A DNA stretch of 64,000 bases. Origin: Candidatus Beckwithbacteria bacterium GW2011_GWC1_49_16. GTDB taxonomy: Bacteria; Patescibacteriota; Microgenomatia; UBA1400; CG1-02-47-37. Below the pieces are notes generated by a model. That model did not search any database and was not told where the DNA came from. It saw only the letters and a program-made list of their open reading frames with translations. The first letter of the stretch is position 1. Each line of letters begins with the position of its first letter. This document shows positions 6,955 to 37,900 of this stretch, piece after piece. The stretch is taken from assembly GCA_001029675.1 (NCBI GenBank), contig CP011210.1, positions 517,663 through 581,662 of the forward strand, given 5' to 3'. The translations under genes were made by a program, and so were the position numbers.

Positions 6955-6965
6955 ATGCTTATAAT

Positions 6966-7089: not shown

Positions 7090-7632
7090 TCAGGCTAAAT
7101 TTGGCAATGGGTCGCTACTACCCGAGTCTTGTATAAGCATCATGGGGTGGAGGCTATTTAAGGATTGGGCGGCTTGAAGAAAGATGTTCCTTTTGACTTT
7201 AAGGTCGGTGATATGGCCAGTGGAGTTGTCGTGATTTTTAAAAGCAATATTATCACCCACTTCTAAATTGAACTGGCCATATTTTCTACTTAAAGGGATG
7301 AGGTAGAGATTCGAGATGGTCTGGGAATCTGGTAGTAAAGCTACGGTTAGGGTAAAATTATGGTCGGCAGTATCACCAGTTCTGGTTGCATGAAAAAGAG
7401 ATAAGAAGGTTACCTTGGTATTAGGGATTGGTTTATTTGAATCATAAATGTCCCGATTCCTGGTATAGGGGGCTTTTCCAGAAGAATAAAAAGCTGGATC
7501 CTCAAAAGCCAGGCTTTTGGCCAATTCAGTAAAAGGGTATGCCGCTTCAGATAGTTTTGTTTCGGCTTGGCGTAAAGCTCGGTTTTCAAAATGTTTTTTA
7601 ATGCCGGGAATTTTTTTAAATGCTTCTAGCAT
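7090..7632 (-). CDS. hypothetical protein (180 aa), first of an AT-richer two-gene insert between ftsZ and ileS
   Basis: ORF only. No motif recognised. Visibly lower GC than its neighbours. Confidence 0.45.
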   Translation of the reverse strand: MLEAFKKIPGIKKHFENRALRQAETKLSEAAYPFTELAKSLAFEDPAFYSSGKAPYTRNRDIYDSNKPIPNTKVTFLSLFHATRTGDTADHNFTLTVALLPDSQTISNLYLIPLSRKYGQFNLEVGDNIAFKNHDNSTGHITDLKVKRNIFLQAAQSLNSLHPMMLIQDSGSSDPLPNLA

Positions 7633-8552: not shown

Positions 8553-9707
8553 TTACCTGCCTTGGCGTAAAAATGCCGGGATGTCGAATTCGTCTTCGGG
8601 CTCTTCTTTGGCTTCGGAAAGTTCTTTTTCCTCTTCGTCTTTGTCGGGCGGTCTTTTGCCCGGCTCGTCTTCTTCTTCGTCGGCGCCGGTCACCTGGGCC
8701 TGGCTCTGAACTACTTGGGTGCGGGTGGCGATGTCTTTGAGGCGCTGGCGGGACTCGTCAAAGCCGGTGGCAATAACGGTGATTTTAACCTGGTCTACCA
8801 GGGTGTCATCGATTGAGGCACCAAAGATGACGTTGGCGTCGGCTTCGGCGGATTTGGTAATAATTTCTGCCGCCTGGTGGACCTCGCTCATGGTCAAGTC
8901 GGTACCGCCGACGATGTTGAAGAGTAACCCCTTGGCGCCTTCGATCGAAGTTTCGAGTAAGGGTGAAGACACTGCCGAACGGGCGGCGGCCTGGGCCCGG
9001 TTTTCGCCCACACCAGAACCGACTCCCATCAAAGCCGAGCCGGCGTCTTTCATGATGGTCTTAACGTCGGCAAAGTCAACGTTAATTAGTCCCGCAGTAG
9101 TGATCAAATCAGAGATACCCTGGACGCCCTGGGACAAAACGCTGTCGGCCAGCTTGAAGGCCTCGATTAAGGTTAAGTTTTTGTCGATGACGTCCATGAG
9201 CCTTTGGTTGGGGACGACGATGGCGGTGTCGACTTTGGGGGTTAAATTTTCGATGCCTTCGTCGGCGACCACCATCCTGCGGGTGCCTTCAAAAAGAAAC
9301 GGTTTGGTGACTACGGCGACGGTCAAAGCCCCGGCCTCACGGGCCACTTCGGCAATGACCGGACCGGCACCGGTGCCGGTACCGCCACCCATGCCGCAAG
9401 TAATAAAAACCATATCGGAATCAAATAAAAGTTCCTGGATTTTGTCTCTTGATTCCTCGGCAGCTTCGCGGCCGATTTTGGGGTCGGCGCCGGAACCCAA
9501 ACCGCGGGTTAATTTTTCGCCGATTTGGAGCTTGGTGTCGGCTTGGCAGTTTAAAAGAATCTGGGCGTCGGTGTTGACGGCGACAAATTCCACCCCTTTA
9601 ATTTGTCCCGAGGAAATCATCGAATTGACGGCGTTGTTGCCACCGCCGCCGACTCCTAAAACCTTAATTTTGGCAAAAGTATTAATATCAGGTTTGACAA
9701 GAGCCAT
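8553..9707 (-). CDS. ftsZ: cell division GTPase FtsZ
   Basis: '[18 protein letters not shown]' tubulin signature and GTP-binding 'GGTGTGA'. Acidic C-terminal tail ending [10 protein letters not shown]. Confidence 0.97.
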
Positions 9708-9781
9708 AGTTTATATAATTAAAGTAGCGGGGCAGGAGTAACGCGCTTATACAATAGCCTATTTTTGAGGCGAGGGCAAGC

Positions 9782-13924: not shown

Positions 13925-15243
13925 AAAGCCTTAACCGCCCGTTTAAACTGGTCACCGCGGTCTTGGTAATCTTTAAACATATTAAAACTGGCTGCTCCCG
14001 GAGACATCAGGCATATTTTACCGACCTGGGTGTATTCATATGCTTTCTTGACTGCTTGAGCCATGGTGTCTACCTCAATCAGCCGGGGTTTATGCTTGGG
14101 CTTGGCATTGAGAATTAATTTTTTAATTGCTTTGCCGGTGTCGGGGAAAAGCATTACTACCGGGATTGAATTTTTGACGACGGCTTCAGCCAACGGTGAT
14201 TGGCCCACTCCCCTATCGTAGCCGCCGACAATGACCGAACCGATTTTCCCGCTCAAAGAGTCTATGGCTTGGGCCGCCGATTGGGGTATGGTCGACAAAG
14301 AATCGTTAATAAAAGTAACCCCTTTGGCTTTGGCGACAAACTCTAAACGATGAGGCAAAGGCTTAAATTTAGAAATCCCCTTAATGATCAGTTCGTTAGG
14401 GAGGCGAAAATACTTGCCAATAATTACCGCCGGCATGATGTTGGCAAGATTAAATCTGCCTAAAAGGGGCGATTTGGCTACCGGAAAAACCGGTTTATTT
14501 TTGTAATAAATAAAACCGTCTTTAACATAACAATCCAATCCCGCTTCATGGTCTAAGCTGAAACTAACTCTTTTTGCCCGGCTTTTGAAAGCAATTCGTT
14601 TAATCCGCCTATCGGAGGCGTTGTATATGAGTATGTCTGATTTTTTCTGAAATTGAGTAATCTTCTTTTTAGCAGCAGCGTATTGCCTGATGTCGGCGTA
14701 ATAGTCCAGGTGTTCTGGAAAAAGATTCAACATCACCGCTACTTCTGGACTTTTGTCAAGGTCGGAGAGCTGATGGCTGGAGATTTCAAATACGGCAAAC
14801 GATTTTGGAGTTAATTTCTCCAAGTAATCAAGCGGAGGCCGACCGATGTTGCCTACCAGCTGGACATTGAATTTTTGTTTTAGGACCGCGGCAATTAAAG
14901 ATGCTGTGGTGCTTTTACCTTTAGTCCCGGTCACGCCGATAATTTTTGCTGGACTCAAATCAAAGAATAATTTTGTTTGGGAAGTGAGTAACGCCTTGGC
15001 CGCAGAGTATTTTTTAATCAATTTAACCGGAATACCGGGGCTACGAATGATGAAGTTGTATTTTTTTATCTCTTTGAGGTAATCGGGGTCATTTTTAACA
15101 TCAAGAATCGCTATCTCGGCTTTAAAATCGATTTGGCGCAGAAGTTTAAGCGTCGATTGGCCTTCTCGACCAAAACCAACCAGGCAGATTTTTTGGCCGG
15201 CGATTATTTTTTTGAGTTTTTTTTGCCACTCATGCATAAGCAA
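13921..15243 (-). CDS. murD: UDP-N-acetylmuramoylalanine--D-glutamate ligase MurD (or L-Glu-adding MurD2 type)
   Basis: Mur-ligase P-loop 'IIGVTGTKGKSTTASLIAAVL', 440 aa, in the dcw position of murD. Confidence 0.85.
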   Translation of the reverse strand: MLMHEWQKKLKKIIAGQKICLVGFGREGQSTLKLLRQIDFKAEIAILDVKNDPDYLKEIKKYNFIIRSPGIPVKLIKKYSAAKALLTSQTKLFFDLSPAKIIGVTGTKGKSTTASLIAAVLKQKFNVQLVGNIGRPPLDYLEKLTPKSFAVFEISSHQLSDLDKSPEVAVMLNLFPEHLDYYADIRQYAAAKKKITQFQKKSDILIYNASDRRIKRIAFKSRAKRVSFSLDHEAGLDCYVKDGFIYYKNKPVFPVAKSPLLGRFNLANIMPAVIIGKYFRLPNELIIKGISKFKPLPHRLEFVAKAKGVTFINDSLSTIPQSAAQAIDSLSGKIGSVIVGGYDRGVGQSPLAEAVVKNSIPVVMLFPDTGKAIKKLILNAKPKHKPRLIEVDTMAQAVKKAYEYTQVGKICLMSPGAASFNMFKDYQDRGDQFKRAVKAL

Positions 15244-16516
15244 GTCGTTTTAATAATTTTTTCTGCGGATCGGTCAAAAATTTATCCTCGCCCCAGGAAG
15301 ATAAGATTTTATGACTTTGCCCTTTACCAACTAAATCCAAACTGGCGATTATTTCTTCTTTAGTGCCGACGCACTCAAACGGCCTAAATTCCCCCTCGCC
15401 TTTCAGTTGCTTAAGTAAAGGTAATAAATCCTGACGCTCAAGCAGGTTTTGCCCAAAAATTTCAACGGTTTTGTCTTTTAAAAACGGATTCAAAAGCACA
15501 TAAACTGACAAACACTTGGGACAGTCTCCGCACCAAACATTTTCTTTTTGACCCCGATTGCAGCTTTTAAAAACAGAGAAATATTGAGGCATTTTGGAAA
15601 AAATTTTAGAAATTTGCATTTCCCAGAGTGGCCTGACGAGGCTGAAGTAATTTAGCGACGCTGAAAGGTACTCTTTGACATAAGCGCGAAACTGCTGTTC
15701 AAATTCCCAAGTTTTTGAATATTGATGGTTGATTGGTTGGCCGAGAAAATTGACGTTGGCTTCCTCGGCGCTTCTCTCGTTAGCGACGATCAGCTGATTA
15801 AAACCAAAAATAGCGCCGACCAACAAACTTAAAAAGCCCAAATTAGCTGAAAAAGGCGTATGGCCATTAAGGTAACCGAAGTCATTAAGTTCTAAAAGTT
15901 TTGGGTCAATTTGCCTTAAAATCGTTATTTTGTCTTTCAGCCCGGCAACTTTCACCACCTCCTTGGCTGCCTGGGTCGGATTAACTAACATTGCCGCCGG
16001 TGACTGACCTAGTTGCTTTAAAACCTCAATCGCCACCACCGAGTCTTTGCCACCCCCAACCATCACTAAACTCCTCTCGGCTGAAAATTTAAGAGTGAAA
16101 GACCTAAATTGTTTATCGCCGGCGCTGACGATCTTGACAAAATCGTTAGCGCGAAAATCAATTTTGTTTTGGAAGAAAAATTCCCCTAATCCTTTTTTTA
16201 ACAAATTAAGCCACCACTTAACCTGATCTGGTGTTAGCTTGCCGGCTTTGATGGTGATTTCCTCTGGACAAGCGGCTTTCCAGTAACTTAACATCTCGAT
16301 TAAACCCAGGTGAAAAACGAGATTGTCTAAAACATTTTTCGGCAGCTTATGGGCGCGACTGCCGGCGCCTTTAATCACAATTTGCGGTCGAAAAACAATG
16401 TCCGGGATAAGCTGAAAATCAAAACTTACTTCTAAATCATCGCCGTCAGCATTCCAGTTAAAGCCGCGATAAACAAACTGCCGGTGTCTCTGGCGCAATT
16501 GGGGCAAAAGGATCAT
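15230..16516 (-). CDS. PP-loop (SGGxDS-like) ATP-pyrophosphatase-family protein with C-terminal Cys cluster, function unknown
   Basis: 'SLVMVGGGKDSVVAIEVL' resembles the PP-loop SGGxDS. C-terminal 'CGDCPKC'. Real start is most likely the ATG at 16514-16516 (MILLPQL...), which overlaps the mraY stop as ATGA; the longer track ORF would overlap mraY by ~290 nt. Confidence 0.6.
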   Translation of the reverse strand: MILLPQLRQRHRQFVYRGFNWNADGDDLEVSFDFQLIPDIVFRPQIVIKGAGSRAHKLPKNVLDNLVFHLGLIEMLSYWKAACPEEITIKAGKLTPDQVKWWLNLLKKGLGEFFFQNKIDFRANDFVKIVSAGDKQFRSFTLKFSAERSLVMVGGGKDSVVAIEVLKQLGQSPAAMLVNPTQAAKEVVKVAGLKDKITILRQIDPKLLELNDFGYLNGHTPFSANLGFLSLLVGAIFGFNQLIVANERSAEEANVNFLGQPINHQYSKTWEFEQQFRAYVKEYLSASLNYFSLVRPLWEMQISKIFSKMPQYFSVFKSCNRGQKENVWCGDCPKCLSVYVLLNPFLKDKTVEIFGQNLLERQDLLPLLKQLKGEGEFRPFECVGTKEEIIASLDLVGKGQSHKILSSWGEDKFLTDPQKKLLKRLAYA

Positions 16517-17544
16517 ATCACCGCTAACCAGACGCCAAAGATGGCCAACATGATGCTGGCTAAATAGGCGCGGTTGACGATTTTTGATTCTTCCCAACCA
16601 ATAAGCTGAAGCCAAAGATGAATTGGGGAAACGGGAAAAACCTTTCTGCCCAGGAATTTCTTGCCAACAAGCTGAACCAGGCTCGATAAGATTTCGGCGA
16701 CAAAAATGCCGCCGATGACGATTAAAGCCATGACTTTGCCTAAAAGCAGGCCGACGACGGCAAAGGTAGCACCAAAAGACAAGGCGCCGACGTCGCCAAG
16801 CCAAATCCGGGCGGGGAAAACGTTAAAGTACAAAAAAGCAATCAGGCTGCCGAGCCATAAAGCCAGGAAAAACGACAAGGGGGTGTCAAGGATCGAAGCC
16901 GACAAATACCAAAAGGCAAACAAAGCTACCATCATCACTCCTGAGGCCAGGCCGTCGAGGCCATCGGTGATGTTGACGGCGTTGGCAAAGGCGACGATGA
17001 CGAAGGCGGCAAAGGGAATGTATAAAAGCCCGAGGTTGAAAACGTTAAAAAAAGGAATGTAGAGGATGTTTATCGTCAGGTTAAAATACAAAAGCGAAGC
17101 GATGGTTAAACCTAAGGCCCATTGGATCAAAAACTTGTGCCTCAAGCGCAAGCCAAAAAAGCCGCTCTTATCAAACTTAAAAAATTTCATAATGTCGTCG
17201 TAGAGCCCCAAAAGCCCAAAGGAAACAAAAGTGAAAAAAATGATGTGGATTTCCTCTTTGATGGGGTAGACGTGGGTGACAAAGACACCCAAAAAACGAG
17301 CCAAAGGAAAAAGCAGGAAAAACAGCAGAGTGACCACCAGGATGACTAAGAATCCCCCGCCGACGGGAGTGCCTTTTTTGTGCCGATGCAGCCGGTCAAA
17401 TATCGGGGTAGGCTTGTCAAAGGCGTCGCGGGTTAACTGCCGTTTGCGGGTAAAACGCAGGCGGTACAACAGGTTGATAAAAGGCACCAGGGCAACCGAG
17501 GTAACGGCGAAAGAAAAGATTAAAAGTCCTAAAAGTAATGCCAT
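16513..17544 (-). CDS. mraY: phospho-N-acetylmuramoyl-pentapeptide transferase MraY
   Basis: Polytopic, with the 'NAVNITDGLDGLASG' catalytic loop. Confidence 0.93.
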   Translation of the reverse strand: MALLLGLLIFSFAVTSVALVPFINLLYRLRFTRKRQLTRDAFDKPTPIFDRLHRHKKGTPVGGGFLVILVVTLLFFLLFPLARFLGVFVTHVYPIKEEIHIIFFTFVSFGLLGLYDDIMKFFKFDKSGFFGLRLRHKFLIQWALGLTIASLLYFNLTINILYIPFFNVFNLGLLYIPFAAFVIVAFANAVNITDGLDGLASGVMMVALFAFWYLSASILDTPLSFFLALWLGSLIAFLYFNVFPARIWLGDVGALSFGATFAVVGLLLGKVMALIVIGGIFVAEILSSLVQLVGKKFLGRKVFPVSPIHLWLQLIGWEESKIVNRAYLASIMLAIFGVWLAVI

Positions 17545-20662: not shown

Positions 20663-21643
20663 TCAAAACAAACTGATAATGGTTTGGGCCAGAGTTTTCG
20701 GGTCGTGGCGGAGTAAGCTTCTTTTGAGCTTGTCGCTTGAAGGTTTCTGGTAGGCGGAATTTGCCAAGAGCTGTTTTCTGACCACCCGACGGTCGGCGGC
20801 TAAGTCGTCAGCCACCGGGTATTCGCGGTATTTAGCATAAGCCTCGATGATGCTTTGGGGCACAGCCTGGCTGTTGACCACAATGTGGTCTAAGCTTTTG
20901 CCGGCGTAGCGCTCGATTTGGCCAACGTGATGAGAGGCGGCAAAGCCCCGAGTTTGGCTATTTAAAGTCATCAGGTTGACCACGTAGACCAGCTTGGCGC
21001 GGGAGGCCTTGATGGTACTCTTGGTTCCGGAAATAACCAGGTTGGCGATAATGCTGTTGAATAGATCGCCGGGGGCAAAAATGATCACGTCGGCCGAAAC
21101 AATCGCCTCTCTGGCTTCGGGATTGAGGCTGGCCCGGGGCCGGGTGTAAAGCCGGGTGATGGTTTCGTTCGGTTTCAGCTTCTGGGTTTCTATCTGATGT
21201 TCAGAAACGATGGTCCGGCCGGTTGAATACTCGGCGACGAGTTTGACCAGTTTTTTAGACACGGGCAAAACTTTGCCTCTTAATCTAAAGATCTTGGCGG
21301 CGGCGACAACTGCTTCCGGTTCAGAGCCGGTCAGGTCTTCCATGGCGGTTAAGAGTAAGTTGCCCAGATTGTGGCCCTTTAAACCCCGGCCCTTGTCAAA
21401 GCGGTACAACAAGAGTTTACGCAACTGGCCGTTTTCCGGGGCCAGCGCGGCCAAGCACTGGCGCATGTCGCCGACGGGCAAAAAGCCGAATTCGTCACGC
21501 AGCCTGCCGGTCGAACCGCCGTCGTCGGTCACCGGCACGATCGCCGTTAACTCCAAGGGGTATTCCTTGAGGCCAGTCAGAAGTACAAAGCTACCGGTCC
21601 CCCCGCCGATGACCACTACCTTTTTGGGCCTTTTTTTAGCCAT
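20663..21643 (-). CDS. YvcK/CofD-family (UPF0052, gluconeogenesis-factor-like) protein
   Basis: 'KKVVVIGGGTGSFVLLTGL' and 'VPVTDDGGSTGRLRDEFG' boxes. Start moved to the ATG at 21641-21643 (MAKKRPKKVVVIGGG); the longer track ORF (to 21775) would overlap the convergent + strand gene. Confidence 0.75.
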   Translation of the reverse strand: MAKKRPKKVVVIGGGTGSFVLLTGLKEYPLELTAIVPVTDDGGSTGRLRDEFGFLPVGDMRQCLAALAPENGQLRKLLLYRFDKGRGLKGHNLGNLLLTAMEDLTGSEPEAVVAAAKIFRLRGKVLPVSKKLVKLVAEYSTGRTIVSEHQIETQKLKPNETITRLYTRPRASLNPEAREAIVSADVIIFAPGDLFNSIIANLVISGTKSTIKASRAKLVYVVNLMTLNSQTRGFAASHHVGQIERYAGKSLDHIVVNSQAVPQSIIEAYAKYREYPVADDLAADRRVVRKQLLANSAYQKPSSDKLKRSLLRHDPKTLAQTIISLF

Positions 21644-21674
21644 GGCTATATTGTACTTTATGTGGCAAACTTTG

Positions 21675-21683
21675 TGGTATAAT
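21675..21683 (+). promoter_or_regulatory. extended -10 element (TGgTATAAT) upstream of + strand ORF 21721
   Basis: tttgTGgTATAATcgcc, ~38 nt before the ATG. No good -35, which extended -10 promoters can tolerate. Confidence 0.4.
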
Positions 21684-21720
21684 CGCCAATGCTCCTGCCT
21701 AAAATGACGCTTTTTAAAAT

Positions 21721-22266
21721 ATGGCAACTCCTCAGATAGAACTGGACACGACTCAATCGCCGCTGGTTGAAACAATTCACCGGCTGGGATTTCTTTACAA
21801 CGGCTTGATCAATTCTCACAACACCAGAAAATTTGGCTATATCCCAACCAGAGCCGATGGTTATGCTTTTGCGTCGCTACAAGCGAGGGTATCCGATCGG
21901 GAGTGGAAACCGCTGGCGACGTTTGTACTCGGGCCCGAACCGGATAAAGTTGACTTAATCATCGAAACCATATCTCCTAATGAGGGTGAAGTGTCGCGAT
22001 ACGTTGCTTATAACGAGAATGGGGAAATGGTACTTGACTCTGACAACAGCAACCCCGACTACAAAAAAGCTTTCCCTACCCCAAAGGGAGACCTCGATGT
22101 AAAAAAAGCCAAAGCCTGGCTGGAACAGTTCGAGATGGTCAGGTCTAACCAGCTCCCAAAGAGAATCAATATGCCTGGCGTGGTTGAAGAACTTGAAACA
22201 ACTTTGGCTCAAGGAGTCGTGAGCGTCGGTGGCTTCTTTGCTGCGGTTAGAGAGCAAGCAGTTTAA
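21721..22266 (+). CDS. hypothetical protein (181 aa), opposite strand to surrounding operon
   Basis: ORF with its own promoter-like element. Convergent 20-nt overlap with the HAD gene. No motif recognised. Confidence 0.45.
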   Translation: MATPQIELDTTQSPLVETIHRLGFLYNGLINSHNTRKFGYIPTRADGYAFASLQARVSDREWKPLATFVLGPEPDKVDLIIETISPNEGEVSRYVAYNENGEMVLDSDNSNPDYKKAFPTPKGDLDVKKAKAWLEQFEMVRSNQLPKRINMPGVVEELETTLAQGVVSVGGFFAAVREQAV

Positions 22267-22900
22267 TTATCTCCCGATGAGAGGAAACAATTTTATCAGC
22301 GGGGACGGCGTCGTTGGGATAGGTACCGGGGTTGTACCAGATCACCGTCATACCGGCCTTATGGGCCGATTTGACCCCGTTGATAGAGTCTTCGATCACC
22401 AAACAATCTTGGGGCTTAACCTTGAGTTTTCTGGCGGTATAAAGGTAAATGTCCGGCGCCGGCTTGCCCCGGCCGGCCACATCCTCGGCGCTGACCACCA
22501 GAGGGAAAAACTTTTTTAGGTCAAACCGGGTCAAAACCATCTTAATCCATGATGGCGGCGATGACGACGCCACGGTCATTTTTAGGCCGCTTAAGGCAAT
22601 TTGTTTAATCAAGTCCAAAACTGCCGGCAGCAGGGCCACTTCCTCTTGATAAACTTGGTTGGCGGTTTGATGGTAAAGCTGAAGAAATTTTTCCTTAGAT
22701 ACCTTTAAGCCGTATTTATCAGTCAACTGCTGGTAAATGCCGTCCATGCTTCTGCCGACCACATCTTCGTCTTTTACCTTGGTGTAATCGACGCCCATTT
22801 TTTTATACAATTGGCCGCGGTGACGATACCAGACGTCTTCGCTGTCAACAATCACCCCGTCCATATCAAAAATCACCGCTTGAAAGTCATTTAGTTTCAT
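22247..22900 (-). CDS. HAD-superfamily hydrolase (beta-phosphoglucomutase-like subfamily IA)
   Basis: Motif I 'AVIFDMDGVIVDSE', motif II 'VASSS', motif III/IV 'K..P.PD.Y' ... 'VIEDSINGVKSAHKAGM'. Confidence 0.85.
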   Translation of the reverse strand: MKLNDFQAVIFDMDGVIVDSEDVWYRHRGQLYKKMGVDYTKVKDEDVVGRSMDGIYQQLTDKYGLKVSKEKFLQLYHQTANQVYQEEVALLPAVLDLIKQIALSGLKMTVASSSPPSWIKMVLTRFDLKKFFPLVVSAEDVAGRGKPAPDIYLYTARKLKVKPQDCLVIEDSINGVKSAHKAGMTVIWYNPGTYPNDAVPADKIVSSHREIIKLLAL

Positions 22901-22902
22901 TG

Positions 22903-22911
22903 TGCTATAAT
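22903..22911 (+). promoter_or_regulatory. extended -10 element (TGcTATAAT) for + strand pair 22944-24038
   Basis: cattgTGcTATAATagcag lies immediately after the HAD start codon on the other strand. It is followed by a small GCCC-GCAA-GGGC hairpin plus a T-run in the 5' leader (22925-22943). Confidence 0.4.
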
Positions 22912-22943
22912 AGCAGAAATTCTTGCCCGCAAGGGCATTTTTT

Positions 22944-23501
22944 ATGAGCGAGTTAGTTGGTCAAGCACCGTTATTTACCAAATTTACCGAATTGGCTAAA
23001 GAGTTGGGATACGATCCAGCGGATAATCAAGATTTTAGGCTAGACGACCCGGAAAGCGACAAAGCCTTTGTGTTTCAACCGAGAGACAAAATCTTATTCT
23101 GGTCAATCATGACCCGGGTGAACGAGAAAGAAGTTCATTCAGTTAGTTTAATTCTTCATGACAGCGCTGATGAAAATTATTTCGGCACGCTGCAGGTCAA
23201 CGCGGTTTTGGGCGAAGACGAAAAATATTATTCTTACCAAGAGATGGATATTCTTATGAACGGATTTTCGCTTTTGTCTCGAGAAGGAAGCAAACATCGA
23301 ACTCTATTTTCCTCTGACAAAAAAAGAGTTGATGAATTAGTTGAAGATGAGAAGGCCTTGCTAAACCAAGCCGGCTTTCTACCCGTTGCTAGTCGAACAG
23401 AAAGGTACGACATGGAAAAAACTGTAGAAAATTTTTACCGGGCAATTGAGGCGAAAAATTTTGGAGTGACGGCGACGGAGATTTTGGTGCCTGCGGCTTA
23501 A
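22944..23501 (+). CDS. hypothetical acidic protein (~185 aa)
   Basis: The track ORF uses TTG at 22923. The ATG at 22944 (MSELVGQ...) sits after the promoter/hairpin and is preferred. No domain recognised. AT-richer than flanks, and uses AGA/AGG/TTA codons that are rare in neighbours. Confidence 0.5.
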   Translation: MSELVGQAPLFTKFTELAKELGYDPADNQDFRLDDPESDKAFVFQPRDKILFWSIMTRVNEKEVHSVSLILHDSADENYFGTLQVNAVLGEDEKYYSYQEMDILMNGFSLLSREGSKHRTLFSSDKKRVDELVEDEKALLNQAGFLPVASRTERYDMEKTVENFYRAIEAKNFGVTATEILVPAA

Positions 23502-23504
23502 TTT

Positions 23505-24038
23505 ATGGGTGAAAAAGAGCGACAAAACTGGCTGGGACGACTGCAAGGGAAACGGGCCTTGAGAAATGTGGCCACTTCGCTAGAAAACAGAATCGTGCCT
23601 GATTTAGGCAAACCGGTCGAGCTGATCAGCCCATCAGGAGACGCCAGAATTGTCTACGAGTCACTCACAAAAGATTCCCCGGCCCAACTGTCTTATCAAG
23701 TCAAAAGCCCTTTTGTGGAAAGTAATGTTTGGATACCCCATTCCAGTTTGGTATTTGAGGGAAGGAGAAAGTTGGCAATTAAGGCAATTCCGGAAGAGGG
23801 AGCTTACGTTTTAACTGACATCATCTACCACCAAAACACACAAACTCTTTTTAAGCCGGGAATTTACGACTCGGCCGAGTCAGGCACGCAAGAAAAAAGG
23901 GCTGAACTGATTGAACTGGGTTTTAGAAGAGAAAATGATTTGCCCCGGGTGATTGACTTTAGCCAAACTGCGAGTGGATTTTTATCAGCGGTTAAAAGCG
24001 GCCGGGTTGAAGCGCCTGAGCTGGTAGCAGCTACCTGA
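23505..24038 (+). CDS. hypothetical protein (177 aa)
   Basis: Starts 4 nt after the preceding ORF's stop, so probably co-transcribed. No domain recognised. Its 3' end overlaps the glmS stop convergently. Confidence 0.5.
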   Translation: MGEKERQNWLGRLQGKRALRNVATSLENRIVPDLGKPVELISPSGDARIVYESLTKDSPAQLSYQVKSPFVESNVWIPHSSLVFEGRRKLAIKAIPEEGAYVLTDIIYHQNTQTLFKPGIYDSAESGTQEKRAELIELGFRRENDLPRVIDFSQTASGFLSAVKSGRVEAPELVAAT

Positions 24039-25788
24039 CGGTGACGGATTTGGCAAGGTTCCTGGGCTTGTCGGGGTTTAAGCCACGGGCCACGGCGATG
24101 TCGTAGGCAAGAAGCTGGGCGATGACGGCAGCGGGGATGGCGCTGGCTTCTTTTAAGTCAGGCACTTTAAAATGGACGTCAAAAACCGGATCGTTTTGGG
24201 GGGAAATGCCGATGATCAAACCGCCTCGGGCCTTCAATTCGTGGGCGGCAGAAAGCGAGTCGGTCAAAGATTGGTCTTTGGGGGCGATGACAATACAGGG
24301 AGTGCCCTGGTCGATAAGAGCAATCGGTCCGTGCTTTAATTCCCCGCCGGCGTAGCCTTCGGCGTGGGCGTAGCTGACTTCCTTTATCTTTAAAGCCGTT
24401 TCTAAAGCGATGGGGAAAGAAGTCAATCTGCCGACGGCAAAAATGTCGTCTTCGTCTTTGATTTTGGTAGCCAGCTTCTTGATGTCGGCTCTAACTTTGC
24501 CGGAAAGTAAACCCTGGGTAGCCCGGGCGGCTTGGGCGATTAACTTTTTAGCTTCGTCGAGGTTGCCGTTTAACTGGTAGGCCAGCTGGGTGAGGATAGC
24601 CAGTTTAGCGGTAAAGGCTTTAGTAGAAGCCACCGCCACTTCCTGGCCGGCGCCAAGTAAAATTTTCAGGTCTGACTTTCGGTACAAGGTCGAGCCCAAA
24701 ACGTTGGTGATGCCCACCACGCGCATCTTTTTCTTCTTGGCCAGGTTGACGGCGTCGACGACGTCGATGGTCTCGCCCGACTGGGACAGCATCAAAAACG
24801 CCTGCTTGGGGGTGAGTAACCGGGCAAACTTTTGGAATTCAGAACCGACGATGGCTTGGGCGTCGTAACCGGAGAAATTGAGCAAATATTCGCCAAAAAG
24901 CGCGGCATAGGAAGCGGTGCCGCAGCCTAAAAGAAAAGTTTTGTCGGCTTTTTTGATCAAGCGGGTCACCGATGCGATCGTTCCCGGCGACAGCCGGGAC
25001 AAATCATCCAAAATCTTGGGCTGGTCGTAGATTTCTTTTTCCATGAAGTGGTGGAAGCGGCCCAAGCGACTTTGCTGCGCCTGCCAGTCCAAGCGTTTGA
25101 CTTGGGGTTTTAAGGCTTTGCCCGAGGCGGCGTCAAAAAGCTTAACTTGCCCGGCGCTAATTTGGGCCAGCTGGCCGTCTTCAAGAAAAATGACTCGGTT
25201 GGTGTGGTCGAGAAGTGCCCAGAGGTCGGAGGCGATAAAATTCTCACCCTTGCCCACGCCGATGACCAAAGGCGAGCCGTTTTTGACGGCCAAGAGTTCG
25301 TCTTTTTTGGCGTTTAAAACGATGAAGGCGTTCATGCCGGTAACTTGGTTGAAAGCCACCCGCAAGGCGCGGGCGACCGGCTGCTTTTGGGCCTTGGACT
25401 CGATTAAATGGAGGGCAACTTCAGTGTCGGTTTCGGACAGGAACTTATGCTTTTTGACCAGTTTTTCTTTTAAGGGACGAAAGTTTTCGACAATGCCGTT
25501 GTGGACCAGGCACAGGGTATTGGCGCAATCGACGTGGGGGTGGGCGTTGCCGATGGTCACCCCCCCGTGGGTCGCCCACCGGGTATGGCCCAAGCCTAGG
25601 TTTGAAACCGGCAGTTTGGTTTTGGCTGCGCCGATTTTACCCACATGGCGCTCGCGTTTGATCGTCGTGCCTTTTTTGACGGCAATACCCCACGAGTCGT
25701 AGCCGCGGTACTCGAGCTTTTTTAGACCGTCAAGGACAATCTCGGCGGCGTGATTCTTTTTGCCGATATAACCAAATATGCCACACAT
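24031..25788 (-). CDS. glmS: glutamine--fructose-6-phosphate aminotransferase (isomerising)
   Basis: N-terminal Ntn Cys 'MCGIFGYIG', followed by tandem SIS domains. 585 aa. Confidence 0.93.
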   Translation of the reverse strand: MCGIFGYIGKKNHAAEIVLDGLKKLEYRGYDSWGIAVKKGTTIKRERHVGKIGAAKTKLPVSNLGLGHTRWATHGGVTIGNAHPHVDCANTLCLVHNGIVENFRPLKEKLVKKHKFLSETDTEVALHLIESKAQKQPVARALRVAFNQVTGMNAFIVLNAKKDELLAVKNGSPLVIGVGKGENFIASDLWALLDHTNRVIFLEDGQLAQISAGQVKLFDAASGKALKPQVKRLDWQAQQSRLGRFHHFMEKEIYDQPKILDDLSRLSPGTIASVTRLIKKADKTFLLGCGTASYAALFGEYLLNFSGYDAQAIVGSEFQKFARLLTPKQAFLMLSQSGETIDVVDAVNLAKKKKMRVVGITNVLGSTLYRKSDLKILLGAGQEVAVASTKAFTAKLAILTQLAYQLNGNLDEAKKLIAQAARATQGLLSGKVRADIKKLATKIKDEDDIFAVGRLTSFPIALETALKIKEVSYAHAEGYAGGELKHGPIALIDQGTPCIVIAPKDQSLTDSLSAAHELKARGGLIIGISPQNDPVFDVHFKVPDLKEASAIPAAVIAQLLAYDIAVARGLNPDKPRNLAKSVTVR

Positions 25789-25791: not shown

Positions 25792-27111
25792 TTAGCTTAT
25801 TTTAGCACCTAATTTGACCAGGCGGCCGGCAAAATTTTCGTAGCCGCGGTCAAGGTGGTGGGTGTCGGTTAAGACTGTGGTGCCGGAGGCGGCCAGGCCG
25901 GCCAATGCCAGGGTAGCACCGGCTCTAATGTCAGTGACGGCAACTTTGGTGCCGGTGAGCTTGGTGGGGCCGGTGATTTCCATGCCGTGAAGGTTGCCCG
26001 GCAAATCGTCTTTCAAGTTAAAGTTATAAAACTTGTCCGGCTGCTTAGGTTTAGGATCAAAAAACTCTATTTGGGCCCCCATTCTTTTAAGGTCGGCGGC
26101 AAACTGAAAACGGGAAGTAAAAACGGTTTCGACGATTTTTGATTTGCCTTGGGACTGGGTGGCCAAAACCGACCACAAGGGCTGCCAGTCGGTCATGAAC
26201 CCCGGGTGGGGAGAGGTGGTGACGTCGACGGCTTTTAAGGGACCTTGGGAGTAAAAGCGCAGGCCGTACTTGCCTACTTCAAACTTGCCGCCGGCAGCTT
26301 TGAGTTTGGCTAAGAAAGCAGATAGGTCTTTTTGCCTGGCGTTTTCTAAAACGACGTCGCCGCGGGTGACTAAAGCGGCTAAAGCATAAGACACGGCTTC
26401 GTTCCTGTCGGGCATAACTTGGTGGATGGCGGAACTAAGTTTGGCGACACCGGTGATTTCGATCACCCGGTGAGGTTTCCTTTTGATTTTAGCGCCCATC
26501 TGGTTTAAAAACTCAATCAAGTCGTCGATTTCCGGTTCCAGGGCGGCGTTTTTAAGAGTGGTTTTGCCGGCAGCCAAAACCGACGCCATGATCATGGTTT
26601 CGGTGCCGGTGTGGGAGTTTTTGGCAAAAGTGTATGTGGCCCCGGTAAGTTTCGGGCAGGAGGCGTAAAGCAGATTTCCCTTAATTTTAATGTCGGCGCC
26701 CAGGGCTTTGAGGCCATCAAGGTGCCGGCCTAAGGGCCTTTGGCCGATCCTGTCCCCGCCGGGGAGGGGGACGATGGCCCGGCCGCTGCGGACCAGCAAG
26801 GGGGCGACAAACAGGGCCGAGGCCCGGGAGGCAGTACCCAGTTTCCGGGGGACGCGGGAAGATTTGAGGGACGGGGCGGCTATAAACAGGGTACGCTCGC
26901 CGGCGGAATGGACTTTGGCGCCAAGTGAAGTAATGATTCTTTTAGTCAAGTCAACATCGGCGATGCGGGAAAAGTTTAGAAGCCTTACTTCCTGGGGACA
27001 AAGCAGGGCGGCGATCATCAATTTGAAGCTGGCGTTTTTGGCTCCGCCCAGGCGGACGGCGCCTTTTAAGGGAGTGCCGCCATGGATGATGAGCTTGCCG
27101 TTAGCTTTCAT
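25792..27111 (-). CDS. murA: UDP-N-acetylglucosamine 1-carboxyvinyltransferase MurA
   Basis: 'GGAKNASFKLMIAALL', 'LPGGDRIGQRPL', EPSP-synthase-like fold signatures. Confidence 0.92.
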   Translation of the reverse strand: MKANGKLIIHGGTPLKGAVRLGGAKNASFKLMIAALLCPQEVRLLNFSRIADVDLTKRIITSLGAKVHSAGERTLFIAAPSLKSSRVPRKLGTASRASALFVAPLLVRSGRAIVPLPGGDRIGQRPLGRHLDGLKALGADIKIKGNLLYASCPKLTGATYTFAKNSHTGTETMIMASVLAAGKTTLKNAALEPEIDDLIEFLNQMGAKIKRKPHRVIEITGVAKLSSAIHQVMPDRNEAVSYALAALVTRGDVVLENARQKDLSAFLAKLKAAGGKFEVGKYGLRFYSQGPLKAVDVTTSPHPGFMTDWQPLWSVLATQSQGKSKIVETVFTSRFQFAADLKRMGAQIEFFDPKPKQPDKFYNFNLKDDLPGNLHGMEITGPTKLTGTKVAVTDIRAGATLALAGLAASGTTVLTDTHHLDRGYENFAGRLVKLGAKIS

Positions 27112-32012: not shown

Positions 32013-34928
32013 TCAGGATTTGGCCTTAGCCCACCTGTCCCGATAGATAAAGTAAAGCAGGCCGGCCGCTAAAAGAACGATCACAGTCATAACCGCCGGG
32101 GAGAAAAAGGGGTTTTGGGGTTTGACGGCTACGGTGATGTTGAACTCTTTCACTTCCCCCTCAAGGTCAATTTTCTCTTCACCCTTGAAGTTTTGGTAGG
32201 CGATTTCCACCCGATGCTCGCCCGGTTCAACCCCGGTGAAGGTAGCAATGCCGTCTTGGTTGGTTTGACTTTGTTTTGGCTCGGAGTAAAGGGTAACTTG
32301 AGCGCCAGCGACCGGATTTTTATCGCTATCCACCACCTTGATATTGACATTGTAGCCTGCCTCTTTTACTGCTTGCTTTTCTTCTTCGGTTTCGGCCGGT
32401 ACGGCTTCTTCATCAATGATTTGAGTTTTCATTTGGTTTGGAGCAAAAATTCCCCCTACCGCCTGGTTGACTGAGAGATAAAATGAAGTGGTCGAGCTGT
32501 TGTTGCCTTTGTCGTAGGCGGTTAACTCTGCCTGGTAGTAGCCTGTAGGCAAACTTTGGTCGAGGCCAAAATCAAAGCGGGTTGACTTAAGATTTTCTGA
32601 ATCGGTAAAGCCGGTCAACTTAAGCTCCTTTTCCAAATAATCGACAAAGTTTCCGGAAGCGTCTTGGAGCTTGAGTTTGAAGATTAACTGGTCCGGCCCG
32701 GAGGCGACTTTATCAAAAGTATCGGTGGTGCCGTCTGAATTGGTGACGCTTGAACCTCGGTAGGCATCGACCAAGTTGCCGCTTAAAGTTAGATTGTGAC
32801 TGCTAAGAACGACTTTCTGACCCGAAGCGTTAACTAGAGTGCCATTAACCGCTAGTTCTGCCAAACTCGGCGCAGTAAGATCGACCAAGACATCCGCGGC
32901 TTTAGTACGAGTGTCGGAGCTGACACCAGTGGCGGTCACCTGCCAAGAATGTTTACCTTCTGATAAAGCTTTTTGGTTTAGGCCTTTGAAAAAGACTTTA
33001 AACTGGTCGCTTAATTCCTCCGCTAAGTTGACGATGTCGACTTTAACGCTGGTGTCGTCCCGAAAAGTATAGTTGGTAGCCGAAGTGCCAGCGGCAGGCA
33101 AACCGCCGACCGAGTAGCGCTGATGTTTATCAGGGTCTAATGCTACCGAATAGGAAGAAATGGCTGATGAATCAGCCGAGGCTTTAAAGCTCAACGTCGG
33201 CTTAGTATCGTTGGTAAAGCCGGAAGGCGAGATTGGCTCAAAGATGGCAGCCACGGTAAAGCCATCGGAAGCGTAAAGACTGGCAGCGGCGTAGGCGTCG
33301 CCAGAGTCAAAACTCCTGACATAAATGGTGTGGGCGCCGGCCGAAAGGCTACTTAAGTCGCAACTAAAGCCCTCGGGTGAACCGTCGAAGCTGCCGTCGG
33401 TAGCCGAGCAAGAATTCCAAGTACCGGTGGTGGTGCTTGACGTGCTCCACTGGACGCCGGAAACAGCCACCCCGTCGGAAACCGTGCCGGTGAGTTGGGG
33501 AGTGGTGTCTTCGGTGATAGTAGTGTCAATAAGAGTAATGGCCGGCGAGCCGTGGGTAATCTCAAAAGCGTAAACTTGACCGGCAACCCCGGTGCCATTG
33601 CCGCCATAGATCGAGCTGACAAAAACTTCCTGCCAGCCGTCGTTGTCCATATCGCCAAACCAAACCACGTGGCCCAAGTTTTGGTTGGTAGTAGGGGTGG
33701 CTAAATCTGCCGAAGTAAAAGTCAAATCAGCAGTGGTATCAATAGTGGTACCGTCACTTAAAAAAATGTGAAATTGGCCCTCGTCGGAGCCGTCGATTTG
33801 ATAGGCTCCAACTATCAAATCTGTGTTGCCGTCGGAGTTGACGTCGTGCATCGCTAATTCCCGACCAAAGTTATCGTTGGCAGCGGCGCCGGAAAAAATA
33901 ATGTCAGCGTCGGTGGCATCATAAGTGGCACTCAAAGAACTCGAGCCCAAGAAGCAGTAGACCCGGCCGGCATTGGTGGCCGAAGTGTCGTTTAGGTAGG
34001 CGCCCAGGCAAAAGTCGGCTTTACCGTCCTGGTTGATGTCGCCGGTCTCGCCCGACGACCGGGTAAAGTTTTCGGTGGTGGTCTCGCCGGTGATGGTGAT
34101 GTCAACATCTCCGTTCATGGAGGAGCCGCCGTAGAAAATGTGAATCGTAGCTTGATCGCTGTAGTCTTCCCCAACCAAAATATCGTCGGCGCCGTCGCCG
34201 TTAACGTCTCCGGATACAAGTAGATCCTGGCCAAGCTTGTCAGAACCGGCCACAGCCAAAGTGACATCGGCAGTGGTGTCAAAGGTTTGGTCGCCGTCGC
34301 CGTAGAAAACCCTGACGTCGCCGGCGCTACTACTGGCTCCTTGAGCCGCAAAGGCAATATCCTGGTTGCCATCGGCGTTAAAATCGCCGGTGGTGATCGT
34401 GGAGCCAAATAAGTCGTTGGCGGTGGTGTTAGTAATGGTAATATCGGCTTCTGTGGCTGCGTCAATGGAGCTAGCTAACGAACTGGAACCAAAAATGATG
34501 TAAACCTCTCCGGCGTTTAAGGCGCCATCATCGTTAGAGGCGCTGCCAATAATCAAGTCGTCAGCTCCGTCGCCATCGATGTCAGTGGCCTTGTAGTTGT
34601 TGACTTGAATCAAATTGTCGCCCATGCTACCGGTGCCAGAATTGGTGATAGTAAGATCAACGGTGTCGTCAAAAGTAGCGCCCCCATAAAAAATATATAT
34701 TTTCCCCTTACCCGAAGCTGCTTGAGGGGCAGTAGCGATTAAATCTTGGTAGCCGTCACCGTTTAAGTCGGCGGCCATGACGTTATTGCTGCCAAAATAG
34801 GAATTATTGACCGTGTCGCTAGTGGTAACCACGCCTAACTCGGTCATGCCTAGGGCTAAAGCTGTTTGAGGCAAAAGTAAAAATAACAAACTGAAAATCA
34901 ACCAATAGAAAAACTTGTTCGAAATCAT
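32013..34928 (-). CDS. large secreted/surface protein with FG-GAP (integrin-alpha-like) repeats, Cna-B/CarboxypepD_reg-like domain and C-terminal TM anchor
   Basis: Signal peptide MISNKFFYWLIFSLLFLLLPQTALA. At least 7 repeats of type DLNGDGYQDLI / DIDGDGADDLIIG / DVNGDGADDILVG. C-terminal 'VKVVDSDKNPVAGAQVTLYSEP...GVEPGEHRVEIAY' followed by a TM helix and basic tail. Confidence 0.75.
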   Translation of the reverse strand: MISNKFFYWLIFSLLFLLLPQTALALGMTELGVVTTSDTVNNSYFGSNNVMAADLNGDGYQDLIATAPQAASGKGKIYIFYGGATFDDTVDLTITNSGTGSMGDNLIQVNNYKATDIDGDGADDLIIGSASNDDGALNAGEVYIIFGSSSLASSIDAATEADITITNTTANDLFGSTITTGDFNADGNQDIAFAAQGASSSAGDVRVFYGDGDQTFDTTADVTLAVAGSDKLGQDLLVSGDVNGDGADDILVGEDYSDQATIHIFYGGSSMNGDVDITITGETTTENFTRSSGETGDINQDGKADFCLGAYLNDTSATNAGRVYCFLGSSSLSATYDATDADIIFSGAAANDNFGRELAMHDVNSDGNTDLIVGAYQIDGSDEGQFHIFLSDGTTIDTTADLTFTSADLATPTTNQNLGHVVWFGDMDNDGWQEVFVSSIYGGNGTGVAGQVYAFEITHGSPAITLIDTTITEDTTPQLTGTVSDGVAVSGVQWSTSSTTTGTWNSCSATDGSFDGSPEGFSCDLSSLSAGAHTIYVRSFDSGDAYAAASLYASDGFTVAAIFEPISPSGFTNDTKPTLSFKASADSSAISSYSVALDPDKHQRYSVGGLPAAGTSATNYTFRDDTSVKVDIVNLAEELSDQFKVFFKGLNQKALSEGKHSWQVTATGVSSDTRTKAADVLVDLTAPSLAELAVNGTLVNASGQKVVLSSHNLTLSGNLVDAYRGSSVTNSDGTTDTFDKVASGPDQLIFKLKLQDASGNFVDYLEKELKLTGFTDSENLKSTRFDFGLDQSLPTGYYQAELTAYDKGNNSSTTSFYLSVNQAVGGIFAPNQMKTQIIDEEAVPAETEEEKQAVKEAGYNVNIKVVDSDKNPVAGAQVTLYSEPKQSQTNQDGIATFTGVEPGEHRVEIAYQNFKGEEKIDLEGEVKEFNITVAVKPQNPFFSPAVMTVIVLLAAGLLYFIYRDRWAKAKS

Positions 34929-37900
34929 GTCTTTTTTAGTTTAAGCAACTTTTTCAGCCTTTTCAAGTTGAATCCGATAATTAACGTCAAACCAGTCACT
35001 CCCAAGACTCGCCAATCGGCAAATGGGTTTTGCGGTTTGATTTTGATGGTCAGTTCAAACTTTTTCACTTGGTCGCCAGTCAAGTCAACTTTTTCCTCCC
35101 CGATTTTATCTTGGTAGGAAATTTTGATGGTGTGACTACCCGGTTCAAGACCGATAAAGCTGGCCGTACCGTTATTATCAGTGACGGCGGTTTTGGGGTC
35201 GGAAAAAACCGTCACCACCGCTCCTTCGACGGGTTGGTTTTGGCTGTCAACCACAATGATATTCAAGTCGTAACCTTGTTGCTTTGAACTAAAATCAGCC
35301 GGGGTGGTTTTTTCGCCCACGATCTCGGTTTGAAGTTGGCTGATAACGGTATTGACCCCGCCCAAACCTGAGCTAAAAGTGGTGGCGGAAACTATGTTGC
35401 TGGTGGGGCTACCAGCACATTCGTTGAAGGCTCTTAAAACAAAGTAGTAGCGCCTACCTGGCTCAAGAGATGAAACGGTAAACGAGGTAGATTGAGCGTC
35501 ACCTATCTGGCCGGCAGAATAAGAATAATTATCAAGCTCGGCGCCGTACTCTAAAAGGTAGTGACTGATGGTGCCGGTGCCAGGAGTAAAATTGAGGCTG
35601 ACTGATGAGGCGGAATCGGCGGTGGCTGAAGTCAGGGTCGGAGCCGACGGCGCGCCTGCAGAGCAGGCCCTAGAGACGGTTTTGGTGAGGTTGTCGATGG
35701 TAAAGGTAGCCGAGGCGTAGTTGGCTTGAGCGGTGTAAGACTGGTTGACGTCACCGACTTTGATATAAACTGTGTGAGCCCCGTCGGAAAGATTAGTAAC
35801 GTTACAAGAAAAGTTTTCGGACTTAGAGTTGAAACTGCCATCATCGGCACTACAGGCAACCCAGCCTCCGGAAGCCGAGTTACTATCCAACTGGTAGCTG
35901 ACGCTATTGATATTGGTAATCGAATTGCCGGCGGAAATAGAACCTTTTAAAGTCAAGGAGTTGCCGGAAAACGACGTCGGCACAGAACTTAGGCTGGTGG
36001 TATGGGGGAAGTTGTAAATTACATAAGCCGAACCAGAATCGGTCCGGGAATTATAGTCAGCACCATAGGCGCCGACCAAAAGGTCTAAAGAGCCATCACC
36101 GTTCATGTCCTCTAGTCCCAGGCTGTTGAAAGAAAAAATGTCAATGGCGTTGGCGCCGTCGTAGCGCAGGTTATAATTGTTGGGGTCTGACAAAGAAACG
36201 ACATTGGCGGTGCCGGTGTAGTCGTTAAAAAGATCGTTATAGATAATGTAAAACGACCCGGACCGATCGATGCTGTTGTTGCTCGATCTTCTGGCCGGAA
36301 AAATAAAGTCTAATAAACCATCGTTGTTGAAGTCTAAAACATGAAATTCCGATTCAACCAGAAAAGTACCGTCTTCTGTAGAAGCGGGTCCGTCGTAGCG
36401 AATGTTGTAGTTAGTCGAGGTAGCCATATCAATGATGTTGCCGGTACCGGTGTAGTCGTCGATTAAAGAATCATAAACAATATAGAGTGAGCCAGATCCC
36501 CATGAGGTATAATTGCCAGCCGAAGTGGCGGAAATTAACAAGTCGTTTTTGCCGTTGTTGTCGACGTCGACCACCAGGTCGTTTTCGTGGGAAAACAAAG
36601 CATCACTCTCGGCACCATCGTAACGGAGGTTAAAGTTATCCGTGTCGGATAAATCGACAGTGTTGCCGGTGCCGGAGTAGTCGTCAATCAAGCTGTTATA
36701 AATCACATACAAAACGCCGTTGTTGCTCCGACTCTGGGTGTCGGCCAGGTAAGCGCCGATAACCAAGTCCTTTTTACCGTCGTTGTCGACGTCGCCTACC
36801 TCCAGGCCGATATTAGATAATTTGTCGCTGGCGGCAGCGCCGTCGTAACGAATATTAAAGTTATCCGTGTCAGCCAAATCGACGATGTTGCCGGTGCCGG
36901 TGAGCGAGGAGTTAAAAATGCTATTGTAAATAACATACAAAGATCCCGAATCGGAGCGGGAGTTATAGTCTGTTAGCCCAGAACCGACGATAAGATCCAA
37001 GAGGTTGTCGTTGTCAAGATCCTTGGCTAGAAAAGCCCCGTGAGATAAGCCGTTACCACTGGTAGCCCCGTCAAAACGAAAAGTAAAGTTGGCAGTGTCA
37101 GATAAATCGACAGTGTTACCGGTGCCGGTGTATTTGGTAATCAGTGAATTGTCAAAATAGTAAAAAGCCCCAGAATCGGTGCCGTTGGTGCCGTCAAAGG
37201 CTACAGAACCTACCAGTAGATCCATATCACCGTCTTGGTCGAGGTCAACTGGCAACACCGATCTGGCCCCCAACTGATCGTCACCGTCGACGCCGTCGAA
37301 ACGGATGCTGTAGCTTGATGACTCGTTAAGGTCAAAGGTATTACCGGTGCCAGAGTAAGTGGCCAAAAGCGAACCATAAATAATATAAAAAGCGCTGTAG
37401 CTACCCGTCGCGTCAGAAGCGACCACAATCAAATCCTTGAGGCCGTCGCCGTCGAAGTCGGCGGCCTTGACGTCGCCCCAGCCGGTGTAGCTTAAGGCGT
37501 TGGCGCCGTCAAAGCGCAAGTTAAAGTCGGTGGTGTTGCCCATGTCGTAAGTTTTACTGGGAGAGGTGGTGACCGAGACGTCGTAATTAATCGTCAGGCG
37601 AGGTCTTTTGGGGGCGATCAAGTTTCCCGGAGTGTAATCGGCGGCATAAAAGTCCATACAGTTACCGTTGGATTCGGTTTCGGCTTTGACCAAAAAGCCG
37701 TAGTTGGTGGCCGAATTATCCAGCCACCCCTGAACTATCGCCACCCCCGAAGCGTTTAAGCTAAGGGTGATGTAGCCAGCCGAGCCGTCGGTGACCGATC
37801 CGCTAGCCAACAAGGTTGAGTTGTAGTCTGTATCGGCAGTAGACAGACCGGCCGACCCGGCCCAGTTGGTGGTGTTGTGGGCTAATTGATCCCAAGTAGG

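Follow-up and report, generated by a model that had tools for sequence, protein, structure and literature searches.

A putative two-gene orphan unit in a lineage-specific block between glmS and yvcK/glmR of a Candidatus Beckwithbacteria genome

Layout of the locus

The window analysed here, 64,000 nucleotides (nt) of contig CP011210.1 (positions 517,663 to 581,662) from the Patescibacteria genome of Candidatus Beckwithbacteria bacterium GW2011_GWC1_49_16, carries a minus-strand operon for peptidoglycan precursors that is interrupted between glmS and yvcK/glmR, and two open reading frames (ORFs) on the opposite strand at this place are our main subject. ORF1 (22944-23501, + strand; 185 aa; GenBank AKM79336.1, hypothetical protein UX85_C0002G0031) and ORF2 (23505-24038, + strand; 177 aa; AKM79337.1, UX85_C0002G0032) had been noticed in a preliminary description of the stretch, and their positions and lengths are borne out when read directly from the sequence. 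They form an adjacent pair of small genes (both ca. 180 aa) with one promoter 5' of both: the extended -10 element TGcTATAAT (TGCTATAAT, 22903-22911, + strand) lies 32 nt 5' of the ORF1 ATG and implies a leader of about 25 nt. The ORF1 leader (22924-22943, + strand) holds a hairpin, TGCCC-GCAA-GGGCA (22924-22937; 5-bp GC-rich stem, GCAA loop), followed by six T residues up to 22943. The ORFs share one reading frame and are separated by 3 nt (TAA-TTT-ATG) and not by the 4 nt first reported. At the 3' end, the stop codon of ORF2 (TGA) overlaps that of glmS (TAG, - strand) convergently over 8 nt (24031-24038), as had been described, and from this geometry a collision of ORF1-ORF2 transcription with read-through from the division and cell wall (dcw) genes is plausible.

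The pair belongs to a lineage-specific block of ca. 2.4 kb (21644-24030) that is larger than the one described before, including as it does a HAD gene and a third orphan, in the order ORF0, HAD, ORF1, ORF2. ORF0 (21721-22266, + strand; 181 aa, isoelectric point (pI) 5.0; AKM79334.1, UX85_C0002G0029) is preceded by another match to the extended -10 motif, TGgTATAAT (21675-21683, + strand). Domain searches assign the HAD gene (22247-22900, - strand) to the HAD-IA sugar-phosphate phosphatases or beta-phosphoglucomutases; its own extended -10 element, TGcTATTAT (22907-22915, - strand), is followed 6 nt downstream by the ATG, which is a leaderless layout. By the same searches the block is flanked on one side by glmS (24031-25788, - strand), which codes for glucosamine-6-phosphate (GlcN-6-P) synthase and closes the upstream murC-murB-murA-glmS unit, and on the other by a gene (20663-21643, - strand) for a yvcK/glmR-like protein of the CofD family that binds UDP-N-acetylglucosamine (UDP-GlcNAc) and is assigned to the YvcK family. 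Translation of yvcK/glmR probably begins at the ATG at 21643, which TACAAT precedes by 6 nt; the gene call of an identical contig (L082) agrees. ORF0 is oriented away from yvcK/glmR and towards the HAD gene, whose 3' end it overlaps by 20 nt. The same layout thus occurs twice (yvcK<-|->ORF0-><-HAD and HAD<-|->ORF1-ORF2-><-glmS), with the three orphans arranged symmetrically around the HAD gene.

In about 20 Microgenomates loci (L005, L008, L015, L016, L020, L021, L024-L027, L030-L032, L037, L042, L043, L059, L062, L070) the genes follow one another on a single strand in the order murC-murB-murA-(glmU)-glmS-(yvcK)-alpha/beta-hydrolase-murF-femAB-mraY, and glmS is separated by a gap of 8-140 nt from yvcK or from the alpha/beta-hydrolase gene; in L005 the gap is 650 nt and holds an unrelated ORF on the same strand. 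Between glmS and the next operon gene of these loci the block is absent, so that the window carries an extra ca. 2.4 kb; the HAD gene is likewise missing from this position. The view of an opposite-strand unit with its own promoter, which is not at the equivalent position in other Microgenomates, has therefore stood up to the synteny comparison. The relatives compared are distant (45-53% GlmS identity). It may be added that glmS and a yvcK/glmR homologue are adjacent in L005, L008, L015, L016, L021, L024, L034, L037, L059 and L070. This adjacency in many Patescibacteria would be consistent with the regulatory partnership of GlmR and GlmS in Bacillus: in B. subtilis GlmS is stimulated by GlmR/YvcK, and GlmR binds UDP-GlcNAc (PMC6171935, PMC7525490).

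When used as bait in metagenomes the HAD gene proved divergent (best non-self match 38% identical), and it was not found beside these neighbours elsewhere in that search. Only short, chance-level repeats were found around the block, and neither an integrase nor an adjacent tRNA is present at it, the sole tRNA found lying at 374-449. Directly upstream of the mur genes, the window encodes two giant proteins of 971 and 1130 aa with FG-GAP, fn3 and CarboxypepD_reg domains (32013-38317, - strand), which are probably surface proteins.

Coding signals, relatives and composition

Two open stretches of at least 177 codons were found in none of 3000 dinucleotide shuffles of the region, and the length of ORF0 had a probability of P=0.0013. 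For each of the three ORFs the codon log-likelihood is the best of the six frames (ORF0 +0.10, ORF1 +0.11, ORF2 +0.06), the other frames of ORF1 and ORF2 scoring from -0.22 to -0.71, and no long antisense shadow ORF of the window (range -0.24 to +0.05) scores as high as any of the three. The periodicity of the ORFs, with GC content higher at first than at second codon positions (GC1>GC2), resembles that of known genes. On the opposite strand the longest ORF measures 59 aa, and a tblastx comparison with 80 glmS neighbourhoods showed no gene remnant from the operons of relatives there. No internal duplication appeared in a comparison of the region with the window itself, and the region had no match in Rfam. 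Antisense shadow ORFs opposite real genes of the window reach 340 aa (8719-9741, 5896-6561, 25043-25702 and 40420-41106, all + strand). With such long shadow ORFs present, the length of an ORF by itself says little about coding in this genome.

The searches covered about 15 billion public proteins in total. In three word-indexed searches (with ORF0, ORF1 and ORF2), which ran over 5.8 billion clusters, all matches were identical or truncated copies belonging to the same organism, and an exhaustive search of 1.84 billion representatives with a profile hidden Markov model (HMM) built on the alignment of the three ORFs gave no genuine relative. The latter recovered ORF0, ORF2, ORF1 as a fragment, and one cadherin-like repeat protein, which we rejected as a false positive of the kind that repeat proteins produce. 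The ORFs match nothing but identical copies of themselves in their own species, Candidatus Beckwithbacteria GW2011_GWB1_47_15; the three proteins are present on more than 60 contigs, one of which measures 1,049,888 bp. Relatives were absent from 80 Patescibacteria glmS loci (phmmer, tblastx) and from a scan of viral contigs, and a sequence search of the PDB gave no match. A close relative of the genome was not among the matches listed in a genome scan, and a literature search on the identifier of the genome returned no paper. Pfam, NCBIfam, PADLOC and PHROG, searched at E<=1 with ORF0 to ORF2, yielded only chance-level matches (the one in PADLOC being Cas10d, E=0.029, 11 bits), which upholds the early statement that no known domain is recognisable. 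ORF1 and ORF2 thus appear to be taxonomically restricted orphans known only from this Beckwithbacteria species, and all three ORFs are already deposited as hypothetical proteins.

Variation among the recovered copies is slight. The DNA of two contigs (L081, L082) matches the window at 100% identity, and that of a third (L083) differs by one indel; members of the protein clusters differ only by truncations, by R60L in ORF0 and by a change from stop to Trp in ORF2. Presence or absence polymorphism at the junction, proposed earlier as a check, was therefore not informative, all copies being identical in DNA save for the one contig with a 1-nt deletion.

The ORFs had been called visibly richer in AT than the flanking mur genes, and indeed their GC content and GC content at third codon positions (GC3) are lower (0.42 and 0.42 for ORF1, 0.48 and 0.46 for ORF2, against 0.54 and 0.67 for glmS), to a moderate degree that several other genes of the window match or exceed (gene GC 0.493 ± 0.041). 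The GC3 of the other window genes is 0.576 ± 0.083. On a score similar to the codon adaptation index (CAI-like), ORF1 reaches 0.61 and ORF2 0.59, against 0.703 ± 0.053 for other window genes. Over the candidate islet, GC3 is 0.42-0.50 and the CAI-like score 0.57-0.61; the HAD gene of the same block is typical. Equally low values occur in a racemase, an Ldh_2 dehydrogenase, an alcohol dehydrogenase and several other genes without domains. The compositional deviation of ORF1 and ORF2 is real and is not unique in the window. Of the codons named as peculiar to the pair, AGA and AGG are indeed enriched, making up 55% of the Arg codons of ORF1 and ORF2 against 29% in other genes (p=0.015; 58% against 29%, p=0.001, with ORF0 included), and TTA is used normally (22% against 22%). 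Atypical codon usage as such is thus borne out by GC3, by the CAI-like score and by the AGA/AGG comparison with window genes. Five more genes lack a Pfam match (2545-3012, 7090-7632 and 15230-16804, all - strand; 41896-42354 and 49853-50551, both + strand); most have low GC3 and CAI-like scores, and these genes may also be lineage-specific. Between 15000 and 32000 the + strand has a positive GC skew although nearly all genes lie on the - strand, the coding strands being rich in C, and the AT skew reverses its sign across the + strand orphans.

Both products had been described as acidic, which is true of ORF1 (pI 4.7) and not of ORF2 (pI 6.8, with 23 acidic and 23 basic residues). Neither carries a Cys residue or a predicted transmembrane segment or signal peptide. 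In AlphaFold models (predicted local distance difference test, pLDDT, 47 and 32) both proteins have the same order of secondary structure, i.e. a helix, five to six strands, then two to three helices, and the products may be regarded, from these models, as small, soluble, Cys-free alpha+beta proteins without a catalytic signature. The recurring top matches of both models in Foldseek were p32/C1QBP/MAM33, YbjN and Whirly/PUR/SsgB-like folds, at E>=0.2 and with template modelling (TM) scores of at most 0.29. These families resemble the models in the N-terminal helix, the antiparallel sheet of five to six strands and the C-terminal helices, and ORF1 is acidic as they are; in contrast to this likeness, the ORFs have no sequence or profile similarity to them, and the matches are not significant. 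Among themselves, ORF0, ORF1 and ORF2 are similar in length and align with 20-29% identity, with hhalign P values of 8e-4 and 6.5e-3; BLASTP among the three was not significant. The Smith-Waterman z of ORF0 and ORF1 is 4.5-4.9, but unrelated pairs of window proteins reach 4.4-5.3. Paralogy of the three is possible, and we downgraded it for the reason that unrelated window proteins give similar z-scores.

Promoters and gene starts

The motif TGNTATAAT occurs five times in the window where 0.81 would be expected, a ca. 6-fold excess that none of 100 shuffles reached. Its sites lie before the tRNA-Val gene, before gene 2545-3012, before an ATG at ~49796, before ORF0 and before ORF1, so that a gene or an ATG follows closely in every case. 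The ATG at ~49796, 7 nt after the element, we take as the true start of the ORF at 49053-49823. From its enrichment and its position before genes and ATGs, TGNTATAAT may be accepted as a credible promoter signal in this genome, and the TGcTATAAT element reported before ORF1 was located and is one of these sites. A palindrome of 13 nt, TGCTATAATAGCA (22903-22915), contains both opposed extended -10 elements, that of ORF1 on the + strand and that of the HAD gene on the - strand. With their -10 elements overlapping in this way, the two promoters would admit one RNA polymerase at a time, and from the shared palindrome we infer that they compete for it. Divergent pairs of extended -10 promoters with leaderless mRNAs offer a parallel in the enrichment of TGnTATAAT before genes and in an ATG 6-7 nt after the -10 element; unlike these, the opposed elements here overlap within a single palindrome.

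Almost no gene of the window has a Shine-Dalgarno motif. In many genes hexamers resembling a -10 element are seen 6-7 nt before the ATG, for instance at 3020-3028 (- strand), 6961-6969 (- strand), 48071-48079 (+ strand) and 49804-49812 (- strand), and before the starts at 17544 and 21643; the layout of the HAD start (-10 element, 6-7 nt, ATG) recurs at the starts of yvcK and mraY. This suggests that leaderless mRNAs, and translational coupling by way of 4-nt gene overlaps, may be widespread.

The hairpin and U-run described in the ORF1 leader are present as reported, and their folding is no stronger than that of shuffled sequences: the minimum free energy is -9.8 kcal/mol (z=-0.95) and 39 of 200 shuffles fold equally well. 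With a stem of only 5 bp and folding no better than in shuffles, we give this hairpin no weight. Terminator-like sites in the region (7 against 4.0 ± 1.7 expected) are not clearly enriched. A 16-codon ORF, MLLPKMTLFKIWQLLR (21689-21739, + strand), begins 5 nt after the -10 element of ORF0 and runs to a point 16 nt beyond the ATG of ORF0. It may have arisen by chance, or else represent a leaderless ORF upstream of ORF0 and coupled to it. Within the end of murA, 10 nt upstream of the glmS ATG, lies TGCTAAAAT (25799-25807, - strand), which suggests an internal glmS promoter. A glmS ribozyme would not fit here, since only 3 nt separate the end of murA from glmS.

Interpretation and significance

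We regard it as probable that ORF1 and ORF2 are real genes: their length, their frame-specific codon bias and their GC1>GC2 periodicity all speak for coding sequence, albeit with an atypical use of codons. On balance, and by a modest measure, we lean towards the fuller account in which they form a real two-gene orphan unit with an extended -10 promoter inside a lineage-specific block and encode non-enzymatic binding proteins. On this account ORF1 and ORF2 would be one transcription unit read from TGcTATAAT, and the translation of ORF2 would probably be coupled to the termination of ORF1 (UAA-UUU-AUG), in a genome that makes nearly no use of Shine-Dalgarno sites, if the geometry of the junction is a guide. 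The 2.4 kb block would split the peptidoglycan-precursor operon into three minus-strand units, of which the HAD and yvcK units would each have a leaderless promoter of their own, and the palindrome shared by the ORF1 promoter and the leaderless HAD promoter would let one RNA polymerase bind at a time. The part of the account in which we place low confidence is the action of the products: by elimination, since they show no enzymatic features, they may act by non-enzymatic binding of another protein or of a nucleic acid.

A number of findings weigh against this account. The codon log-likelihoods lie 1.4 to 2 standard deviations under the mean of known genes (0.234 ± 0.088), and that of ORF2 is just above the best shadow ORF. 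The recovered copies are identical in DNA, apart from L083, and so give no comparative sign of purifying selection. In L083, a metagenome contig from JGI, a deletion of one nucleotide (AAAACC to AAAAC, position ~1105, equal to window ~23204) shifts the frame of ORF1 after residue 87; this may be an assembly error or a real allele, which could mean that ORF1 is dispensable. The AlphaFold models are of low confidence, and Foldseek found no fold match at E<0.001 for either. Promoter competition and translational coupling are both deduced from geometry, and the idea of a binding protein draws on missing enzymatic features.

The ORFs may alternatively be non-functional: chance or decaying frames in a lineage-specific spacer, or young proto-genes that divergent transcription, starting at the AT-rich leaderless promoters of the HAD gene and yvcK, has exposed; in both cases the products would lack a selected function. 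We judge this unlikely and at the same time worthy of serious attention: no homologue was met with anywhere in the searches, the CAI-like score and GC3 are low, the codon log-likelihood is near the upper range of shadow ORFs, long antisense ORFs arise easily in this genome (e.g. 340 aa at 8719-9741), one contig carries a frameshifted ORF1 allele, and the structural models are of very low confidence. However, a shadow ORF stays open thanks to the real gene that it overlaps in antisense, and ORF1 and ORF2, whose two consecutive frames are of a length that no shuffle produced, have no such gene opposite them; the GC1/GC2 periodicity and the best-of-six frame scores indicate coding; a streamlined genome of ca. 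1 Mb with gene junctions of 3-4 nt is unlikely to retain 1.7 kb of junk; and ORF0 and ORF1 are preceded by a strong promoter motif that bona fide genes use. The shared frame, with only TAA-TTT in between, could also mean that ORF1 and ORF2 are one gene of ca. 364 codons split by an in-frame TAA, either as a recent pseudogene or for programmed read-through, and in a forced alignment the predicted secondary-structure elements of the two fall in register, which would fit an internal duplication. We consider this hardly credible, as a shared frame is expected by chance in one case out of three, the ATG follows the stop directly as at other coupled junctions in the window, every recovered contig has the same stop, which is therefore not a sequencing error, and the similarity of ORF1 to ORF2 is not significant. 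UAA followed by U is, besides, an efficient context for termination.

It is improbable, too, that the main role of the unit lies in transcription itself, through convergent interference at the 3' end of glmS and competition with the HAD promoter by way of the shared palindromic -10 element. The 3' overlaps of 8 and 20 nt between convergent genes that no strong terminator separates, the two overlapping -10 elements at 22903-22915 and the repetition of the layout would suit such a role, which is purely a matter of geometry; 1.1 kb of open reading frames with a frame bias would be superfluous in an interference element, and a role of this kind is compatible with the account of a two-gene orphan unit rather than exclusive of it. 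The preliminary description had proposed a recently acquired module, such as a toxin/immunity, anti-phage or regulatory pair; none of these three functions gained positive support from the analysis. A compact bicistron of atypical composition that has its own promoter and interrupts a conserved operon of core genes does bring type II toxin-antitoxin (TA) and defence-island pairs to mind, and the adjacency of the two genes fits a TA pair. The likeness ends there: in Pfam, NCBIfam, PADLOC and PHROG nothing significant speaks for a toxin or defence module, no known toxin fold or antitoxin domain was found (Pfam, NCBIfam, PADLOC), and a nuclease, kinase, nucleotidyltransferase or DNA-binding domain is not recognisable. 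The two products, of 185 and 177 aa, are equal in size, unlike the typical toxin with its small antitoxin. Defence and TA modules normally spread patchily through many genomes; this pair, by contrast, is confined to a single species and fits neither the models nor the patchy distribution of the systems catalogued in PADLOC. As regards acquisition, absence from relatives is what a horizontally acquired islet would show, but the searches revealed no donor or homologue, no viral relatives, and none of the hallmarks of mobile elements (flanking repeats, tRNA, integrase). The claim of recent acquisition is hence not supported, and a horizontally acquired toxin-antitoxin, effector-immunity or anti-phage module seems to us very improbable. 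Taken as a whole, the earlier observation is partly confirmed and its interpretation partly supported.

A bolder scheme, to which we attach very little probability, may still be put on record. In it ORF0, ORF1 and ORF2 would be very diverged paralogues born in the lineage and would act, together with the HAD protein, as accessory regulators of the UDP-GlcNAc checkpoint formed by GlmS and GlmR (YvcK); the mutually exclusive palindromic promoters of the HAD gene and ORF1, with convergent transcription into glmS and HAD, would then constitute a toggle between making and draining amino-sugar phosphates.

In their small soluble products, their restriction to one species, and a GC3 and codon adaptation under those of core genes, the two ORFs of the unit resemble the taxonomically restricted orphans of the Candidate Phyla Radiation (CPR). 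They differ from ordinary orphans of this kind in that three of them, with ORF0, stand within an operon for peptidoglycan precursors that is otherwise highly conserved, and do so precisely between glmS and yvcK/glmR. We would nonetheless class them as ordinary lineage-specific CPR orphan genes with a mildly interesting local promoter architecture, and the evidence as it stands shows ordinary hypothetical proteins only. Of more use, as a by-product, is the promoter grammar of the genome (extended -10 elements, leaderless mRNAs, almost no Shine-Dalgarno sites), which could help in calling gene starts and operons in Microgenomates. If the ORFs are real genes, they would mean that lineage-specific orphans with promoters of their own can enter even the best conserved operon of a streamlined CPR genome, in this case at the junction of two functionally linked genes, glmS and yvcK/glmR, and they would be candidates for a species-specific modulation of cell-wall precursor supply or for a part in the interaction between episymbiont and host.

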